Shown here: positions 12,570 through 60,006 of the stretch, in pieces
How the letters are laid out: each line of letters starts with the position of its first letter
Numbering within the stretch: the stretch's first letter is position 1
NCBI GenBank assembly: GCA_964399865.1
Contig: CAYNRJ010000001.1
Span: 266,050-330,049, forward strand
DNA from: an uncultured Candidatus Saccharibacteria bacterium
GTDB lineage: Bacteria; Patescibacteriota; Minisyncoccia; Phycocordibacterales; UBA2100
Length of the DNA stretch: 64,000 nt
Reading direction: 5' to 3'
The notes under the pieces: model-generated
What the model was told of the DNA's origin: nothing
Databases searched by the model: none
What the model saw: only the letters and a program-made list of their open reading frames with translations
Translations under genes and position numbers: made by a program

Positions 12570-12741
12570 TGCGGGCGATGTAGGAATCTCCTTCGCCTCT
12601 CAGCTCGCCGTCGCTCGCTTCGGACTAGGCACCGCCTCACTGCCTCGCCTGCTGGCTCGGCAACGTTCCGGCGTTCGATTCCTACTCGCGCAATGCGCAG
12701 GCATTGCGCTATCGCACCGCAAAACACTTCGTGTCATTTTG
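12570..12741 (-). repeat. tRNA-Trp 3' trailer module
   Basis: Minus-strand order: spacer with a gcgcaatgc/gcattgcgc hairpin, then TAGGAATCGAAC, then an 85-nt insert gccggaacgttgcc...gcagtgaggcggtgcctag...gaggcgaaggag, then ATTCCTACATCGCCCGCA, identical to the tRNA-Trp 3' end. The insert is about 80% identical to the Tyr insert. Confidence 0.6.
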
Positions 12742-12812
12742 CGGGCGATGTAGGAATCGAACCTACGACGTCGGTTTTGGAGACCGAAGTTATACCATTT
12801 AACTAATCGCCC
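12742..12812 (-). tRNA. tRNA-Trp (anticodon CCA)
   Basis: Acceptor GGGCGAT/ATCGCCC, anticodon loop CTCCAAA, T-arm GTAGG-TTCGATT-CCTAC, discriminator G. CCA is not encoded. Confidence 0.8.
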
Positions 12813-38209: not shown

Positions 38210-38353
38210 GACATCTTCTCCTGGTTACTCATTACACATAGCAGTCGTCGGTTTTTACCCGACTTTTCTGCCACCAAGGATTGATGCCTCCCAAATCTAA
38301 TTATTACACGAAACCATCTGTTTGTCAATATGTGGCTTATTCCCTAGCCCAAA

Positions 38354-38411
38354 TGCAATGAGGCGACGCCTCATTGCGTGGGAAGCACGCGATGAGATGA
38401 CATCTCATCGC
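38354..38411. repeat. pair of REP-like palindromes: tgcaatgaggcgacgcctcattgc (38354-38377) and gcgatgagatgacatctcatcgc (38389-38411)
   Basis: Perfect palindromes. The first matches the copy at 54048 and resembles the hairpins flanking the RAYT gene at 57 kb. Confidence 0.5.
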
Positions 38412-38430
38412 ATAGGGCGGAAACGAGGGC

Positions 38431-53481: not shown

Positions 53482-53515
53482 CGGGGCGACCTTTCGAGGC
53501 CGCCCCGTTCGCTTT
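53482..53515. terminator. bidirectional hairpin (cggggcgacc tttcga ggccgccccg) between the converging deaminase and folA genes
   Basis: Read directly from the sequence. Confidence 0.4.
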
Positions 53516-54020
53516 ATTCCCTCTCCAGATCTACGTATTTATATTTGATCCCGTTCCACTCGTGCTCTTCTTCAAATACTTTTTTCGTAAATTCAGTTTC
53601 GTAGGGTGGGAAGAAAATGTTCGCGTCTTTTGATTCTGCGTCGATCAGAGTGAGGTACAGTTTGTCGACAAGTGGGAGCGCCTGCCTGTATATTTCTCCC
53701 CCACCACCGATATGGATCTCTTCACTATCAAGCGGCGTCGCAATCTCAATCGCTTTTTGAATTGAGTCGGTGACGATAACTCCATCATATTTCCAGGACG
53801 GGTCACGCGTCACGACAATATTTGTACGCTCAGGAAGCGGGCCGCCCACGTACCCGACGATAGATTCAAACGTCTTGCGCCCCATGATAATGGGATGACC
53901 TTTCGTGAGTTCCTTGAAGCGTTTTAAATCCTCCGGAATGTGCCAGAGCAATTTCTCATCCTTCCCGAGCTCGCGATTCTTCCCTATCGCCACAACCACA
54001 CAGATCCGCGGCTTCTTCAT
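53514..54020 (-). CDS. folA: dihydrofolate reductase
   Basis: ICVVVAIGKNRELGKDEKLLWHIPEDLKRFKELT and IMGRKTFES, the classic DHFR pattern. Confidence 0.85.
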   Translation of the reverse strand: MKKPRICVVVAIGKNRELGKDEKLLWHIPEDLKRFKELTKGHPIIMGRKTFESIVGYVGGPLPERTNIVVTRDPSWKYDGVIVTDSIQKAIEIATPLDSEEIHIGGGGEIYRQALPLVDKLYLTLIDAESKDANIFFPPYETEFTKKVFEEEHEWNGIKYKYVDLERE

Positions 54021-54047
54021 CCATTTACTATATCATTTTCCACCCTG

Positions 54048-54072
54048 TGCAATGAGGCGTCGCCTCATTGCA
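54048..54072. repeat. REP-like perfect palindrome tgcaatgaggcgtcgcctcattgca
   Basis: Same family as the element at 38354. Overlaps the 3' end of the membrane-protein gene. Confidence 0.5.
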
Positions 54073-54466
54073 CCTTGCGCGAAGCGATGGCAATGATGAT
54101 TACGCTGACGACTACGTAGAGAGCACTCAGCCATTGGAATACCTGCTCGGGATATGGAGAGAAGAAATCGCCGGAGCCGGGCTCAGGATAGAAGACGAAA
54201 ATGAGCGCCGCGATTGGAACGAACCAGATCGCAAATTTCTTCCACGCCCTGAATGCTTGCGGAACGAAATAGAGGAGCGCAAAGACCAATGCCAACGCCC
54301 CCATGCCGTAGAAAAGACCCTTCCCCAACCTAACCAGCATTTCTCCGGTAATACCCGGGGATATGTTTGATTGGAGTATCAAGAAACCAGTTATTAGTCC
54401 TACTAAAGAAAGCCCTCCGGACAAGAGAATTCTATTCTTCATGGAAAAATTATATCGCATTTTCAA
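54065..54466 (-). CDS. hypothetical 4-TM membrane protein
   Basis: Hydrophobic 133-aa ORF. Confidence 0.4.
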   Translation of the reverse strand: MKMRYNFSMKNRILLSGGLSLVGLITGFLILQSNISPGITGEMLVRLGKGLFYGMGALALVFALLYFVPQAFRAWKKFAIWFVPIAALIFVFYPEPGSGDFFSPYPEQVFQWLSALYVVVSVIIIAIASRKVQ

Positions 54467-56972
54467 TCTGCTCTAATAAATTGAGTAACTCCTGTGCATC
54501 ACTATCTGATATCTTCCCCTTTTCAGCTTTATTAAAGATCTTCTTGGTAAGATTGCTAACATTCTTGGTGGCCTTCTTATCTTTTTTCTTCTCGATTCTC
54601 TTTTCGAGAGCAGCGACTTTTTTGAGTAGATTCTTTTTCAAACTTTCCTTAATATTCATGGTCGCTATTTTCTGCTTTAGGATCGCTAACAGCTCAGTGA
54701 GTGAGACCTCTGCCCCATCAGGCAATACGACCTCATCCACTTGCCCATCATCATTTGAGTCCACTCGTATTACCGCTTGTCCCGGAGATTCAGTATTTAC
54801 CGCAAAAGCGGCTACCGTGTCGAGAGTCGTTGGAATGTCGGAATACGTAGCAAGTGGTGTCGTCACTTCTGCTACAAAATTGTCGATCTCTACCGTGGTC
54901 GGACCACTCCCTAAACCTTTATATACGAAATTGTAGGAGCCCGATTTTGGCAGGAAAATATATTGCCCCTCTGCTGAATAAAGAAACGTGCTGCCAGGTA
55001 TTTCTTCCTTTATTGCAAGAAATTCAGCGGACAGATCCTGTATCTGGTCAATGCCTGTAAAATTCCCGAAGGAGTCATACGCACCGAGTATGACTGGAGA
55101 ATGAGTGCTTACTATCAACTTGTGGTCTAGATTTGTGACTACTGGCTTTTCATTATGGATGTATTCAATATTTTCAATTGCCGCCTCGGAGATTATTTCC
55201 TTAAGGATTTTCTGAATTGATGATGTGTTAAGTAGATCCCTATGCTGACTATTTTGATTGAGGTTCTTGTTAAATTCGAAAAGATCAAAATAATAAACTT
55301 CGTAAGAGTCACTTGAAACGGCGCTCGGATATACGACTGTTTTATCGCCTTCATCGGTGAACTTCACTTTATAACTCGGTAAAAAGTGACTGTTCCGATA
55401 TTCAATCGCTTTTACTGTCGGTCTGCCCCACCCCGCGACCTGCACCACACGAATATTATCTGGGAATTCATACGAGTCGAACTCAGTATGAAAATTCATG
55501 GCATCTTCTGTCAGGTTAACGTCCAGTATTTCCGGTATCCTCAAAGTATCTTCGGAAGGATCAGTGCGAGTGACCCCGCCTCCAGTTAAGAATGCAAAAA
55601 AGTCGAGGTACGCGGATATTCCGTCCTCTCCCCAATAATTTCTCCAAGGTTCTGTGAACGCGGCAGCCGGATCAAAGGTGATAACAGGATCGTCAACTTC
55701 TTCGAAATAACGCGGCGATGGGAGCAGTGTGTACGCTGCCGGCATATTCTGACCGAGCGTGCGCGAAGTTGCCGGATTCACAAAAAGCGGAATCCATTCG
55801 TCATCTCCGTGTAGAAGTGAGCCCGCGGCTTGCGGTGTCCCAAGTTGCGGCGTTCCAACCATGACAAATGAATCAATGAGATCTGCCTTGCCTTCCTCTT
55901 CCAATTTCTTAATGAGTGCCTTTCCAACAAGACCGCCCATTGAATGCGCAACGAGTGTCACGTGCCCTGTCTGAGATTCGGACGCGAGCTGCTCTATTTC
56001 TTCTACCATATCAACTATCCCCTGCGGAGTGTTCACGCCTTCTTCCACAATCGTGGTCGGCGAGAGTCGCCAGTCATATGGAAGCGGTATCCACGCGTCG
56101 ATCGTTCCTTCGGACACAACGCCATCAAGAAAATCGACAAATGGTGCGTAGACAGTCGTCGTGAAAAAATTATTCATAACCCCATCGACACGAACGTCGT
56201 TCACGCTTACCCCACTATCATTAAGAGCCAGTTGCGGCACATCATTACTCCACAAGGTCGGCGGCCATATCGTGTCAGACCCGATTTTCAAAACACTTCC
56301 CTTGAACCCCGGCAAAAACGCGACGCTTGAACAGCACTCCTCCACGTCAGGCACCGCCTCACCTGCCACATATTCAAATTCGAGAAATCTGTATGCAATC
56401 GGTGCATATGTACCTTCAAATGTCGTGAACCATTTCGCAAAATCGATATCTTCGTAAGTTTCTTCTTCAAAAGTATCTGTGATTGGGTTATATGTAAACT
56501 TTGTGTCCGGCACTTCGGCGATGGCTATCGTATAAATACCGGACAAAGTATTGGGATCACCGAGCGGAGGAAGCGAGAATGATATCGACGCTGTTTCATT
56601 TCCGATCACATGTCGTACGACTGAATAATTGACGCCCGAAACCGGTTCACCTCCATCTAACCCATCGATAGATCCTCGGAATAAAGCATATATCGCGTTA
56701 TTTGCGGGAACCGGATAATCCCAAGGTTCAAGAAACGTAATCTCCCAGTCGTTGTTAATCGCGTTCAAATCAGATCCGTTTACTACTGGCATTGGCACTG
56801 TATGGTTTAGAATTTCTACCCCTGCGTGAGTAGCTTGAAGATTGGGCGGTGGTGGTGGAGGAGCTTCAAAATCACCTCTTGCGACTGATGCACTTAAAAG
56901 GAAACACACTGCCGTGATAGTCGCTACAGCCGCGACTTGTAGACTGCCGCCCGAGATTCGAGCGAACTTCAT
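54450..56972 (-). CDS. large secreted alpha/beta-hydrolase (lipase/esterase, GHSMGG nucleophile elbow) with a Lys-rich coiled-coil C-terminus
   Basis: Signal peptide MKFARISGGSLQVAAVATITAVCFLLSASVA, Pro-rich linker, VTLVAHSMGGLVG. The start was set at MKFA (56972). Confidence 0.6.
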   Translation of the reverse strand: MKFARISGGSLQVAAVATITAVCFLLSASVARGDFEAPPPPPPNLQATHAGVEILNHTVPMPVVNGSDLNAINNDWEITFLEPWDYPVPANNAIYALFRGSIDGLDGGEPVSGVNYSVVRHVIGNETASISFSLPPLGDPNTLSGIYTIAIAEVPDTKFTYNPITDTFEEETYEDIDFAKWFTTFEGTYAPIAYRFLEFEYVAGEAVPDVEECCSSVAFLPGFKGSVLKIGSDTIWPPTLWSNDVPQLALNDSGVSVNDVRVDGVMNNFFTTTVYAPFVDFLDGVVSEGTIDAWIPLPYDWRLSPTTIVEEGVNTPQGIVDMVEEIEQLASESQTGHVTLVAHSMGGLVGKALIKKLEEEGKADLIDSFVMVGTPQLGTPQAAGSLLHGDDEWIPLFVNPATSRTLGQNMPAAYTLLPSPRYFEEVDDPVITFDPAAAFTEPWRNYWGEDGISAYLDFFAFLTGGGVTRTDPSEDTLRIPEILDVNLTEDAMNFHTEFDSYEFPDNIRVVQVAGWGRPTVKAIEYRNSHFLPSYKVKFTDEGDKTVVYPSAVSSDSYEVYYFDLFEFNKNLNQNSQHRDLLNTSSIQKILKEIISEAAIENIEYIHNEKPVVTNLDHKLIVSTHSPVILGAYDSFGNFTGIDQIQDLSAEFLAIKEEIPGSTFLYSAEGQYIFLPKSGSYNFVYKGLGSGPTTVEIDNFVAEVTTPLATYSDIPTTLDTVAAFAVNTESPGQAVIRVDSNDDGQVDEVVLPDGAEVSLTELLAILKQKIATMNIKESLKKNLLKKVAALEKRIEKKKDKKATKNVSNLTKKIFNKAEKGKISDSDAQELLNLLEQIENAI

Positions 56973-57020
56973 GAAGCCCAGTGTACTCCTCCTACGAAAT
57001 CCTCCATCACTTGTCCACAA

Positions 57021-57764
57021 TGCAGTGAGGTCCCACCTCACTGCATTATCGTTCGAAATTTTCCTTCGTAAGACTTGCGTAATAATCTCTAGACTCGAGA
57101 AGCATTCGACTAATCGATAGCTGTTCGCTGACCTCGAATACCTCTTTCGATAAAATTGGGTTCTCAGATCGTCGTTCGTGTGCTAGCAAACTTGAGTAGG
57201 GATAATCAGAGAGCTTTCGTTGTAACGAGCGCATGTTTCGTACTTTCCCTTCTTTCCAGCCAGGCTCATAGAGCTCAGAAGGATTACAGTGAATGTATTG
57301 CAAGACTTTCTGAAAATAACGATCGTCCCCAACATGGCGAGATCGAAACGGCCCCGTGAATAAATACCCTACGCGCTCATGCTTAGCATTGAAATACATG
57401 GTATACGCTGTTCCAATCTTTCGCATAAATGACGTTATCCCGCCCTCTGTTAATTCTTTAAGCAGCAGATGATAATGGTTGGGCATTAAACAATACGCCC
57501 CAATCGCGACAATGGGTGTGCCCCGTTCATCCGACAATACATCTGAAAGACGTGGTTTTCGAGTATTGTAAAGACTGACTTGCCTAGTGCCATTTGCCAG
57601 GTATAGGAGCATCAGAAACCGATTCGCATCGTATTCATTGTCAAAAAGATTGCGCTTATCGACACCTCTATTAAAGCAGTGGTACCACTCATCTATTCCA
57701 AATTTCACCGCTCGGGCCATCCGAAAAGCATAGCATGCGTGCAGTGAGGTCCCACCTCACTGCA
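57021..57764 (-). mobile_element. REP-RAYT-REP unit: IS200-like/REP-associated tyrosine (HUH, Y1) transposase gene flanked by identical hairpins
   Basis: The hairpin tgcagtgaggtcccacctcactgca occurs at 57021-57045 and again at 57740-57764, directly abutting the ORF's stop and start. Confidence 0.6.
57046..57720 (-). CDS. IS200-like / RAYT tyrosine (HUH, Y1) transposase
   Basis: HUH motif in LMPNHYHLLL, conserved WYHCFNRG, GYLFTGPFRSRHV and YIHCNPSE with the catalytic Tyr region. Confidence 0.65.
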   Translation of the reverse strand: MARAVKFGIDEWYHCFNRGVDKRNLFDNEYDANRFLMLLYLANGTRQVSLYNTRKPRLSDVLSDERGTPIVAIGAYCLMPNHYHLLLKELTEGGITSFMRKIGTAYTMYFNAKHERVGYLFTGPFRSRHVGDDRYFQKVLQYIHCNPSELYEPGWKEGKVRNMRSLQRKLSDYPYSSLLAHERRSENPILSKEVFEVSEQLSISRMLLESRDYYASLTKENFER

Positions 57765-57795
57765 TTCCGACAGAGAGCCTGATACAATAAAGAGC

Positions 57796-58479
57796 ATGAC
57801 ATCAGTGCAGACATACGAAGTAGAGGTGAAGTCGCTGCTCGGTTCGCCGGAGCGTGCCGACGAGGTACGGCGGGCGATGAAAGAGCTCGATCCGAGCTGC
57901 AAGCTAACGTCCAAAAATAAACAGCTGAACCATTATTTCGAAGGCGGCACTATAGATAAGCTCGCTGAAGCGCTCGCCCCTCACCTCCCGCCAGAGAAGA
58001 TGGCAACGTTGAACGATCTTGCGAAACGCGCGAAGAGCTTTTCTGTCCGCACCCGCGACAAAGACGGTACCGTGCTCGTCGTCGTCAAAGCCTCTGTCGG
58101 GGACGATTCAAGTTCGAACGGAGTCGCTCGTATGGAGTTTGAAGAAAAAGTCCCGCTGACGATCGAAGAATTGGACAAACTTATTCTTTCTGCCGGATTC
58201 AAATACCAGGCGAAATGGTCGCGCGAGCGCGAGGAATATCTCTGCAACGGAGTAAACGTCACCCTAGACAGAAACGCCGGATATGGTTGGCTCGCAGAAT
58301 TCGAGCGCATCGTGGATAGCGAAGCTGATGTGCCACGCGCGAGGGAGGAAGTGGAAAATCTGATGAAAAACCTCGGTGTTTCCGAGCTCCCGCAGGACCG
58401 ACTAGAACGTATGTTCGCCTTCTACAACGAAAACTGGCCTCAGTACTACGGTACCGACAAAATCTTTGTGGTAGAGTAG
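57796..58479 (+). CDS. CYTH-domain protein (class IV adenylyl cyclase/triphosphatase fold)
   Basis: N-terminal YEVEVKSLL (the ExExK motif) and an acidic-residue pattern through the barrel. Confidence 0.65.
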   Translation: MTSVQTYEVEVKSLLGSPERADEVRRAMKELDPSCKLTSKNKQLNHYFEGGTIDKLAEALAPHLPPEKMATLNDLAKRAKSFSVRTRDKDGTVLVVVKASVGDDSSSNGVARMEFEEKVPLTIEELDKLILSAGFKYQAKWSREREEYLCNGVNVTLDRNAGYGWLAEFERIVDSEADVPRAREEVENLMKNLGVSELPQDRLERMFAFYNENWPQYYGTDKIFVVE

Positions 58480-58487
58480 GACGACTT

Positions 58488-59045
58488 ATGTTTTTATCCG
58501 ATGTCGACATCAAGAAGGCAGTGGCGGACGAACGAATTACTCTCGAACCATTTGATACTTCACGCCTCCAGCCAGCAAGCTACGACATCCGTCTCGCCAA
58601 CAAATTCATCATTAACGAAGAAAGTCAGACGCACATCATTGACCCCGTAAAGAAGATCTACGCGAAAACGCGTGAGATAAGCGTGAAAGATGGTGAAGAG
58701 TTCGTGCTTCACCCAGGAATTTCCGTTCTCGGCTCCTCAAAAGAATTCTTTGGGAGCGATCACTACTTAATCCAAGTCGGAGGCAAGTCATCACTCGCGC
58801 GCGTCGGTCTCATGGTCCACAACACCGCCGGAATCATTAACCCGGGACATTTCCTCAACATCACGTTTGAAATAACAAACCAGAACAACGTACCGATAGT
58901 CCTTCGCCCCGGCATGGAGATCGCGCAGATCACATTCTCGATGCTCTCCTCCCCGACCGAGCAGAACTACCGCAAGAACGGACGCTTCGCAAAGGATAAT
59001 TGGAAACATTTCGTCGCACCGAAAGCAAAAAAGGCTAAAAAATAA
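58488..59045 (+). CDS. dcd: dCTP deaminase
   Basis: dUTPase-like fold with ASYDIRL, GKSSLARVGL and the PGMEIAQI region. Confidence 0.85.
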   Translation: MFLSDVDIKKAVADERITLEPFDTSRLQPASYDIRLANKFIINEESQTHIIDPVKKIYAKTREISVKDGEEFVLHPGISVLGSSKEFFGSDHYLIQVGGKSSLARVGLMVHNTAGIINPGHFLNITFEITNQNNVPIVLRPGMEIAQITFSMLSSPTEQNYRKNGRFAKDNWKHFVAPKAKKAKK

Positions 59046-59046
59046 T

Positions 59047-60006
59047 ATGACTCATCCCGAACAGCAGTACTTGGATCTGATGAGGGAGTGCATGGAGAAG
59101 GGTGACCGTCAGGTGGATGCGGGACACGGCGGCGCACACTACGGACTTTTTGGTCGGCAGATTAGATTCGATCTCTCGCAAGGCTTCCCAATGCTCACGA
59201 CCAAGCGTGTGTATTGGAAAGGCGTCCTACACGAACTCTATTGGTTCATGTCAGGACAGACAAATATAAAGTACCTCGTTGATAACGAAGTGCACATTTG
59301 GGACGACTACCCATACCGTTTCTATATGGAACACGCGAAGCGTGGAAAGTGGCCCGAGATGACGAAAGACGAGTTTATCGCGAAAATAAAGAGCGACGAC
59401 TCATTCGCAAAACAGCACGGCGACCTTCGTCATATCTACGGAGAGATGTGGCGTGCATGGCCGGCAAAAGATGGCCGTGGCATAGACCAGCTCGCATGGG
59501 CGATAGAAGAGCTGCGCCGCGACCCAGGATGTCACAACGCGATCGTCACCTCATGGAATCCTGAGTATCTCTACACGATGGCGAAGCCGGAAGAAGTGAA
59601 TCACTTCCCGATCTGCCACAACATGTATCAGTTCAATATTAAAAACGAGAAGGTCTCGCTGCAGCTCTACCAGCGAAGTGCAGATATCTTCCTCGGAGTC
59701 CCCTTTAACATCGCGAGCTACGCACTTCTCGTGCAAATCGTTGCGCATCTCCTCGGCCGCGAAGCGGGAGATTTCGTGCACACATTCGGCGATGTGCACA
59801 TGTACGAAAATCACAAAGCTGCAGTACAAGAACAACTTCTCCGCGAGCCAAAAGCGTTTCCCAAAATTACGATTGATAAGAGTGTAAAGACGCTTGCAGA
59901 TTTCCGACCGGAACACGTCACGCTCGAAGGATACGATCCACATCCGACGATCAAAGCTGAACTCACCGTCGCAGGATTTAGAAATCTGGAGAACAAACCG
60001 GATTAA
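59047..60006 (+). CDS. thyA: thymidylate synthase (ThyA)
   Basis: The catalytic Cys in PICHNMYQFN is present, with conserved flanking segments. Confidence 0.9.
   Translation: MTHPEQQYLDLMRECMEKGDRQVDAGHGGAHYGLFGRQIRFDLSQGFPMLTTKRVYWKGVLHELYWFMSGQTNIKYLVDNEVHIWDDYPYRFYMEHAKRGKWPEMTKDEFIAKIKSDDSFAKQHGDLRHIYGEMWRAWPAKDGRGIDQLAWAIEELRRDPGCHNAIVTSWNPEYLYTMAKPEEVNHFPICHNMYQFNIKNEKVSLQLYQRSADIFLGVPFNIASYALLVQIVAHLLGREAGDFVHTFGDVHMYENHKAAVQEQLLREPKAFPKITIDKSVKTLADFRPEHVTLEGYDPHPTIKAELTVAGFRNLENKPD

Follow-up and report, generated by a model that had tools for sequence, protein, structure and literature searches.

The closest described counterparts of the locus studied here are units in which repetitive extragenic palindromes (REPs) are paired with a REP-associated tyrosine transposase (RAYT). 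The E. coli-type unit, the REPtron, which joins TnpA_REP/RAYT to REPs or bacterial interspersed mosaic elements (BIMEs), was reportedly characterised by Nunvar in 2010 and by Ton-Hoang and Messing in 2012, the last with the structure PDB 4ER8; to our knowledge, REP/RAYT work has been almost confined to Proteobacteria, where REPs are abundant, extragenic and GTAG-tagged. Rickettsia palindromic elements (RPEs), which lie in frame, are said to have been described by Ogata in 2000. Among Y1 proteins, Y---NP is the signature of class 2 (TnpA_REP-like) and Y---Q that of the IS200 transposases (Quentin et al. 2018, PMC6006769). Subclass 2.1, also known as terminal inverted repeat-associated tyrosine transposases (TIRYT), has the motifs NH[YF]H, FQ and Y[IV]HLNP and a length of ~238 aa (PMC6006769); it has been reported without REP-like hairpins, its genes being flanked by terminal inverted repeats with GGGGWSAS (PMC6006769; Di Nocera 2013, PMC3733652). 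TnpA_REP enzymes achieve strand-specific recognition through a GT[AG]G tag or through asymmetry of loop or bulge (PMC8266576), RAYTs generally behave like housekeeping genes (PMC5581495), and both in-frame REPs and REPs close to stop codons are known (Di Nocera 2013, PMC3733652). Here, we analysed a 64-kb window (64,000 nucleotides of contig CAYNRJ010000001.1 from an uncultured Candidatus Saccharibacteria bacterium), which carries one gene for a RAYT-like Y1/HUH tyrosine nuclease placed between two copies of a short hairpin. In our judgement the locus is probably a REPtron-like unit: cognate 27-nt hairpins stand on either side of a RAYT-type Y1/HUH gene that is inherited vertically as a single copy, and the product of this gene would spread and renew a low-copy hairpin family. 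The system is of the REP/RAYT type and apparently undescribed in bacteria of the candidate phyla radiation (CPR); a limited literature search found nothing relevant on RAYT or IS200 hairpins in Patescibacteria/CPR, which is weak evidence of novelty.

The translated open reading frame (ORF) of the Y1 gene contains the NHYHLLL, WYHCFNRG and YIHCNPSE segments by which a preliminary description, made from the letters of the window, had recognised a 224-aa Y1 (HUH) transposase, and the profile search bears this out, with a match to Pfam Y1_Tnp (PF01797) that scores 35.1 bits (E=1.6e-8), above the cut-off of 23. The HUH motif is N81-H82-Y-H84 and the catalytic motif is Y142-I-H-C-N-P, whose YIHCNP carries the Y---NP signature of class 2; N81, H82, H84, Y142, H144 and N146 are invariant across an alignment of 37 homologues with 51-76% identity. 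More than 100 clusters (90% identity) share 51-76% identity with the protein, nearly all of them with a length of 220-225 aa, and the names of the homologues point to Candidatus Kaiserbacteria, a CPR/Patescibacteria lineage, while a profile search of 1.84 billion representative proteins returned 799 clusters at E<=1e-30 and 11,213 clusters at E<=1e-10. The AlphaFold (AF2) model is confident (predicted local distance difference test, pLDDT, 91.8), and the PDB fold nearest to it is 4er8_A (E=8e-7), in which E. coli TnpA_REP is complexed with a REP hairpin; IS608 TnpA and ISDra2 TnpA come next (fold matches: 4er8, 2a6o and 2xm3). Furthermore, the protein has a helical C-terminal extension, in which neither a DnaA_C nor a helix-turn-helix (HTH) Pfam match was found, and no Pfam family besides Y1_Tnp was matched at E up to 1.

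In its NH[YF]H, (Y)FQ and Y-I-H-x-N-P motifs, assigned by direct reading and not by profiles, the protein resembles TnpA-Y1 subclass 2.1 (Bertels group 1 RAYTs; TIRYT), with which it also shares a size of ~225-238 aa including a C-terminal extension, a low gene copy number and a flanking repeat that is rare in the genome (~12 in Bertels group 1). Unlike that subclass, the Kaiserbacteria gene has clear cognate hairpins, GGGGWSAS is absent from its flanks, and the 224-aa protein gives no match to the DnaA_C-like HTH.

As for the hairpins, the 25-mer TGCAGTGAGGTCCCACCTCACTGCA occurs exactly twice in the window (57021-57045 and 57740-57764), where 100 shuffles put the chance expectation at none, and the two identical copies bracket the gene as the preliminary description had it. 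They had been said to abut the stop and start codons, which holds on the stop side, where the 27-nt unit overlaps the stop codon by 1 nt; the other copy instead lies 19 nt upstream of the ATG. Both copies have CCC as their loop on the + strand and are therefore direct and not inverted repeats, and the downstream one, folded as single-stranded DNA (ssDNA), reaches -14.1 kcal/mol (z = -8.2). Allowing up to three mismatches to the consensus, we found exactly five family members in the window against 0.01 expected (Table 1), all of which fold strongly as ssDNA (z = -5 to -8). The hairpins are thus not unique to the locus, related copies being dispersed in this genome as well as in relatives. Two of the three dispersed copies are the related palindromes previously pointed out at 38354 and 54048, whereas the third, at 38387-38413, had been missed; the copy at 54048, formerly placed in an unrelated spot, lies just upstream of folA, the ancestral neighbour of the cassette. 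The flanking copies have the stem GGTCCCACC, and the dispersed ones have GGCG.CGCC (twice) and GATG.CATC (once), the stem type at 38387..38413 also flanking the Y1 gene in the relative L009 (L numbers denote loci of relatives throughout). None of the five copies is inside a long gene, the one at 54047 only overlapping the end, with the stop codon, of a small ORF (54065-54466).

According to a logo of 77 copies, the 27-nt unit reads ATGC-RR-TGAG-N7-CTCA-YY-GCAT, where the outer A and T were free of the search pattern while the invariance of TGC, TGAG, CTCA and GCA is partly imposed by it. The flanks show a weak A-rich/T-rich bias, and complementarity drops to background outside the 27 nt. Over 76 copies the 13-bp helix is 97.8% paired, with changes on both sides at 7 of the 13 pairs, and the covariation observed was reached by none of 500 shuffles; these compensatory changes in the stem therefore support a folded structure. 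In addition, three stem types, each perfectly self-complementary, coexist in the window, so that intrastrand pairing fits better than a double-stranded operator, since a dimeric protein binding double-stranded DNA would not enforce symmetry at positions that tolerate variation.

The doublet downstream of purF consists of two hairpins separated by 7 nt, each with one mismatch in its feet (ATGC...GCGT and ACGC...GCAT). Complementarity is perfect between the first hairpin's 5' foot and the second hairpin's 3' foot, and the inner feet, GCGT and ACGC, pair as well, which gives the impression that two units were joined or swapped halves.

Family hairpins were found at both ends of the Y1 gene in every close relative examined (60-76% identity: L005, L006 and L009; others L013, L038 and L043), one 0-6 nt past the stop codon and another ~15-19 nt ahead of the ATG, in an orientation that varies among relatives. 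The gene also keeps its place. The order in the window is folA, the small ORF, the LCAT-like gene and Y1, and then the divergent CYTH-dcd-thyA; in L005 (76%), just as here, the LCAT-like gene comes after Y1 and folA comes next, and in L006 (67%) and L009-L011 (60%) Y1 lies between dcd/thyA and folA, with tmk and glyA nearby. The LCAT-like block belongs to this lineage only, being present also in L005 and absent from L006, L009, L013 and L047. For the same genome pairs, Y1 identity and dihydrofolate reductase (DHFR) identity are 76 vs 72%, 66.5 vs 73%, 59.6 vs 59.5% and 65.8 vs 66.3%. Synteny, DHFR-like divergence and a single copy in the window are what is expected of a single-copy, vertically inherited, housekeeping-like gene.

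Table 1. Coordinates of the Y1 gene, the family hairpins and the neighbouring genes in the window.
Feature	Position	Strand	Remarks
Y1/HUH tyrosine nuclease gene, RAYT-like, 224 aa	57046..57720	-	ORF, Pfam, motifs, fold
Downstream cognate hairpin, 27-nt unit ATGCAGTGAGGTCCCACCTCACTGCAT	57020..57046		13-bp stem
Upstream cognate hairpin GTGCAGTGAGGTCCCACCTCACTGCAT	57739..57765		In divergent region shared with CYTH gene
Dispersed family member GTGCAATGAGGCGTCGCCTCATTGCAC	54047..54073		27 nt upstream of folA
Dispersed family member ATGCAATGAGGCGACGCCTCATTGCGT	38353..38379		First of doublet downstream of purF stop; ends ...TTGCG
Dispersed family member ACGCGATGAGATGACATCTCATCGCAT (= variant GCGATGAGATGACATCTCATCGC)	38387..38413		Third stem type; second of doublet; 19 nt from purF stop
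folA (DHFR), conserved cassette neighbour in Kaiserbacteria	53514..54020	-	Pfam DHFR_1, E=6.7e-47; synteny
LCAT-like alpha/beta hydrolase gene	54450..56972	-	Between Y1 cassette and folA, along with small ORF 54065-54466
CYTH, dcd and thyA genes, thymidylate-synthesis neighbourhood	57796..60006	+	Pfam CYTH, DCD, Thymidylat_synt; synteny

In relatives, folA comes immediately after the hairpin on the downstream side of Y1, so the copy at 54047..54073 probably marks the ancestral junction between cassette and folA. A relic hairpin upstream of folA was looked for in L005, and nothing convincing was found there. The inserted LCAT block (54047-57046) is bounded by hairpins of different stem types (57020-57046 and 54047-54073), and a family hairpin may have served as the recombination or insertion site for it. 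In L020 the order is thyA, dcd, a single hairpin and folA, without the Y1 gene, the hairpin (L020:2940-2974) standing at the ancestral cassette site; deletion between two direct repeats would give this arrangement. L020 corresponds to the genome CAYIDD01, whose examined stretches hold six homogeneous hairpins despite the solo-hairpin site.

The association extends beyond the close relatives. A scan of metagenome contigs yielded 80 distant relatives with 34-64% identity. In 51 of them, a perfect hairpin (8 bp or longer) is located no more than 150 nt from the gene ends, and 29 of these 51 relatives show an AGG-N4-6-CCT apex. The lineage-specific hairpin recurs at the gene (up to two mismatches) in all 26 loci searched, most of them having it on both sides, and a few distant relatives also show copies far from the Y1 gene. 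Moreover, some Kaiserbacteria genomes have a second Y1 gene (L019:2600-3460 and L037:4030-4800), whose 223-aa product is 40-43% identical and which is accompanied by its own, different hairpins (ACCGAGGACCGTCCTCGGT or TCCAAGGGTAGTCCTTGGA); these form inverted pairs at the gene ends, with one more copy inside the gene. Cognate palindromes on both sides of the gene, the hallmark of a REPtron, are therefore seen in the window and in close and distant relatives alike. An extra cognate hairpin inside the Y1 gene, at ~+160-190 nt and upstream of the HUH motif, was observed in about nine distant relatives (among them loci L097, L124, L125, L129, L131, L135, L146 and L149); REPs inside tnpA_REP genes have been reported earlier for a different subclass (2.4).

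Because of the homology, and because the protein lineage covaries with the hairpin sequence, we infer from the sequences that the protein acts on the hairpins. If it works like E. coli TnpA_REP and the TnpA proteins of IS608 and ISDra2, the Y1 protein would bind the hairpin folded in ssDNA, for example on the lagging-strand template, and the recognition of subterminal hairpins in ssDNA by IS200/IS605 enzymes offers a mechanistic template for the Kaiserbacteria protein. Following the same analogy, Tyr142, together with a metal held by His82/His84, may cleave and rejoin DNA at the foot of the hairpin. Over evolutionary time such activity would spread a small hairpin family and keep replacing its copies. 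Most copies are located just after stop codons and some, in relatives, in frame in loops of housekeeping proteins.

Dispersal was followed with a strict hairpin pattern (TGC...GCA feet required) in one genome per species over 185,579 species, for which we estimate ~2 chance matches. This pattern misses two of the five copies in the window, whose source genome is outside the scanned set, and the counts per genome are therefore lower bounds. The scan returned 62 stretches, nearly all from Kaiserbacteria-type metagenome-assembled genomes (MAGs) and one from a Rubrobacteraceae genome, with strict copies on separate contigs in CAYVHJ01 (11), JAUSHX01 (10), CAYHIZ01 (6) and CAYIDD01 (6). Most intergenic copies follow a stop codon at a distance of no more than ~25 nt and separate genes that are unidirectional or convergent. 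The stem type is identical in a fraction of 0.58 of the within-genome pairs, vs 0.09 between genomes (permutation p<2e-4), the exceptions to this homogeneity being the genome of the window, where the flanks differ from the dispersed copies, and MFLZ01.

About 30% of the copies in relatives are inside ORFs. The 27-nt unit equals nine codons and is open in two of the three frames, the third having a TGA stop, and the peptides that it encodes are C[NSD]E[AMV][ST][PS]H[CR] in one frame and A[VM]R..L[TI]A in another. A gene was accepted as a host only if the flanking peptides were conserved or Pfam was matched, since the ORF-based genic calls are partly artefacts (the "ORF" of L047, for instance, is the CYTH gene read through the hairpin). 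The hosts are TsaD (5 genomes, in the loop between "AR" and "LPRPM"), PheT (5 genomes, in the B5 domain), CarA (3 genomes, in the interdomain linker), PurD (2 genomes, in the GARS_C domain) and, in 1-2 genomes each, enolase, chorismate synthase, PurL and an HhH-GPD glycosylase. The positions of the intragenic hairpins are orthologous between genomes, and the orthologous sites in TsaD and PheT carry the hairpin type of their own genome (five genomes each). This homogeneity within genomes, which includes orthologous sites, makes some process of copying or replacement seem necessary. Like RPEs and intragenic REPs, the Kaiserbacteria palindromes lie in frame in loops of housekeeping proteins, including tRNA synthetases, with some copies at about the same site in related species. 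Unlike RPEs, however, they are far shorter and tied to a cognate Y1 gene, and the genome-specific variants at orthologous sites, which point to concerted evolution, set them apart from both RPEs and intragenic REPs.

The TsaD loop also accommodates other elements. Some genomes (L075:5700-5860; P0123, P0125 and P0140-P0146) have other, longer inserts, e.g., NADKKDSRIDADGNLRKSASNPRKSA, encoded by DNA that is rich in repeats and imperfect palindromes (CGCGGAT...ATCCGCG), and several palindromic elements seem to share this loop as a hot spot. In L017 (1120-1175), a 12-nt partial duplication of the left arm precedes the hairpin in TsaD (GCATGCAGTGGA next to GCATGCAGTGAG), adding four codons.

A bolder version of the copy-or-replace process would make the Y1 enzyme a site-specific "hairpin rewriter" that cuts both feet in ssDNA and swaps the inner stem-loops between loci, a swap at both feet being possible because all copies share the feet ATGC/GCAT. 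We deem this version unlikely. If it were true, rewriting would maintain sequence identity within a lineage across a small, fixed set of hairpins, the nine-codon segments of TsaD, PheT, CarA and PurD among them, and HUH-mediated cassette exchange would drive the concerted evolution of short coding segments in a CPR bacterium.

The REPtron-like reading draws on a series of shared traits: a Y1/HUH gene present once, with its cognate palindromes at both ends and also dispersed in the genome, the Y---NP motif, the best structural match, vertical housekeeping-like inheritance, covariation of hairpin and protein between lineages, and copies located mostly downstream of stop codons. Several results weigh against it. 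The logo is symmetric and without GTAG, and the combination of a GT[AG]G tag with inverted flanks that marks the REPtron was not found; unlike the REP, the Kaiserbacteria unit lacks both the 5' GT[AG]G tag and any asymmetry such as a bulge, and is instead a symmetric 27-nt perfect palindrome, with direct-repeat flanks in the window. The copy number is low (five in the window, at most 11 strict copies per MAG, i.e., ~5-11 copies per genome as opposed to hundreds); the complete 859-kb Kaiserbacteria chromosome CP066682.1 has one strict copy, only the two flanking copies were found in the 10-20-kb loci of L005, L006 and L009, and the share of intragenic copies in relatives (~30%) also departs from the REPtron. 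The protein, with its 224 aa and helical C-terminal extension, scores 36.7 bits with the RAYT equivalog of NCBIfam (NF047646, REP_Tyr_transpos), below the cut-off of 80, and sequence searches of the PDB, whether started from the protein alone or from the profile of 37 sequences, matched no Y1 structure. A clean 27-nt insertion was expected in TsaD, but in the DNA the hairpin segment stands in place of a native 24-nt loop; this falls short of demonstrating simple cut-and-paste insertion, and the history of the site is more than a simple insertion. Finally, the dispersed copies in the window are of other stem types than the flanks, and recent spread from the flanks is therefore unsupported in this genome. 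In light of these results, the preliminary description went too far in calling the arrangement classic, given the missing GT[AG]G tag, the symmetric direct hairpins, the low copy number and the equivalog score, and in suggesting an active or recently active system, given the three dispersed copies of other stem types.

Among the alternatives, the one that survives best is a domesticated nuclease with a host function and no transposition, in which the Y1 protein works with fixed hairpins, e.g., in processing hairpins at the replication fork or in regulating thyA-folA, and the hairpins track the specificity of the protein since every site must stay recognisable. It would account for the fact that, across genomes of 60-76% protein identity, the single copy stays in strict synteny next to dcd/thyA/folA, for a Y1 divergence matching that of DHFR (76 vs 72%, 59.6 vs 59.5% and 65.8 vs 66.3%) and for the orthologous intragenic hairpin sites of several genomes, and RAYTs in general are housekeeping-like (PMC5581495). 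However, point mutation and selection by themselves can hardly produce a concerted change of at least four paired positions at ~10 sites per genome. Among 120 TsaD homologues, 21 have the hairpin peptide, 8 a decayed one, 8 other long inserts and the rest none, and with such polymorphism the sites are not fixed; moreover, the distant relatives have other genomic contexts, with thyA, folA or dcd near the Y1 gene in none of the 80. We therefore regard this explanation as unlikely.

The hairpins might instead be stem-loops acting at the RNA level (3' ends, stabilisers or attenuators) which are kept by the host, with an association to the Y1 gene that is historical and not functional. The location of most intergenic copies shortly after stop codons of unidirectional or convergent genes, as for REPs (PMC3733652), the weak A-rich and T-rich flanks and the very stable stems are compatible with this. 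The hairpins are not followed by a T-tract, however, and no terminator-like site was called within 56800-58000; their identity as intrinsic (Rho-independent) terminators was rejected on account of the missing T-tract and of the intragenic copies in relatives. An Rfam search returned tRNAs only and no family matching the hairpins. In addition, ~30% of the copies in relatives are in coding regions, the stem sequence (TGAG/CTCA, GC) is conserved beyond structural need, and every Y1 lineage, the paralogue included, has its own two-sided hairpin, which argues for a specific link between protein and hairpin. An RNA-level role kept by the host thus appears quite unlikely.

The weakest alternative, an autonomous IS200-type element whose left and right ends are the hairpins and which transposes as a whole hairpin-gene-hairpin unit, is very improbable, for although it would suit the HUH/Y1 transposase fold, the same-strand hairpins at both gene ends in the window, the one hairpin at the usual cassette site in L020 and the differing genomic contexts of the distant relatives, there is one copy in 64 kb, at the same locus across genomes of 60-76% identity, where such elements are multi-copy, the motifs are Y---NP and not Y---Q (PMC6006769) and NHYH and not D-H-[VI]-H, a tnpB partner is lacking, the ends are identical perfect palindromes and not distinct imperfect left-end and right-end hairpins, the best structural match is TnpA_REP and not IS608 TnpA, and IS200/IS605 excision takes both hairpins while L020 keeps one, which deletion between direct repeats fits better.

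With the REPtron-like unit as the probable reading, a system related to REP/RAYT is now placed in the ultra-small genomes of CPR bacteria (Kaiserbacteria), with a minimal, symmetric 27-nt hairpin as partner of a protein type that resembles a Y1 subclass earlier reported without hairpin partners. Its few copies can each be followed between genomes, and those at orthologous in-frame positions of essential genes change together with the other hairpins of their genome. The family would thus constitute a tractable natural experiment on how the enzymes that accompany REPs and their doublets forming hairpins (REPIN/RAYT) copy or replace hairpins, and it suggests how selfish or domesticated DNA elements may come to rewrite short loops of conserved proteins.

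Other observations concern the remainder of the window. The hairpin motif had been said to recur in tRNA trailers; what is found there is one half-site, GCAGTGAGG at 12635, single and without a palindromic partner, where ~0.9 such 9-mers are expected by chance. A hairpin with a 9-bp stem, GCGCAATGC-GCAG-GCATTGCGC, lies at 12688-12709, 31 nt downstream of tRNA-Trp (12741-12812, - strand), and belongs to a sequence family different from that of the Y1-associated hairpins. GC skew is negative in 15 of the 16 consecutive 4-kb bins of the window and near zero in the remaining one, so the window is probably in one replichore with the + strand as the lagging strand, and the minus strand carries most genes between 24 kb and 57 kb, including the Y1 gene. 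Finally, ThyA (59047-60006) has 319 aa vs 278-279 aa in L006 and L009, and its Pfam match spans residues 6-308 on a profile of 266 positions, which together indicate ~40 extra residues in this lineage.

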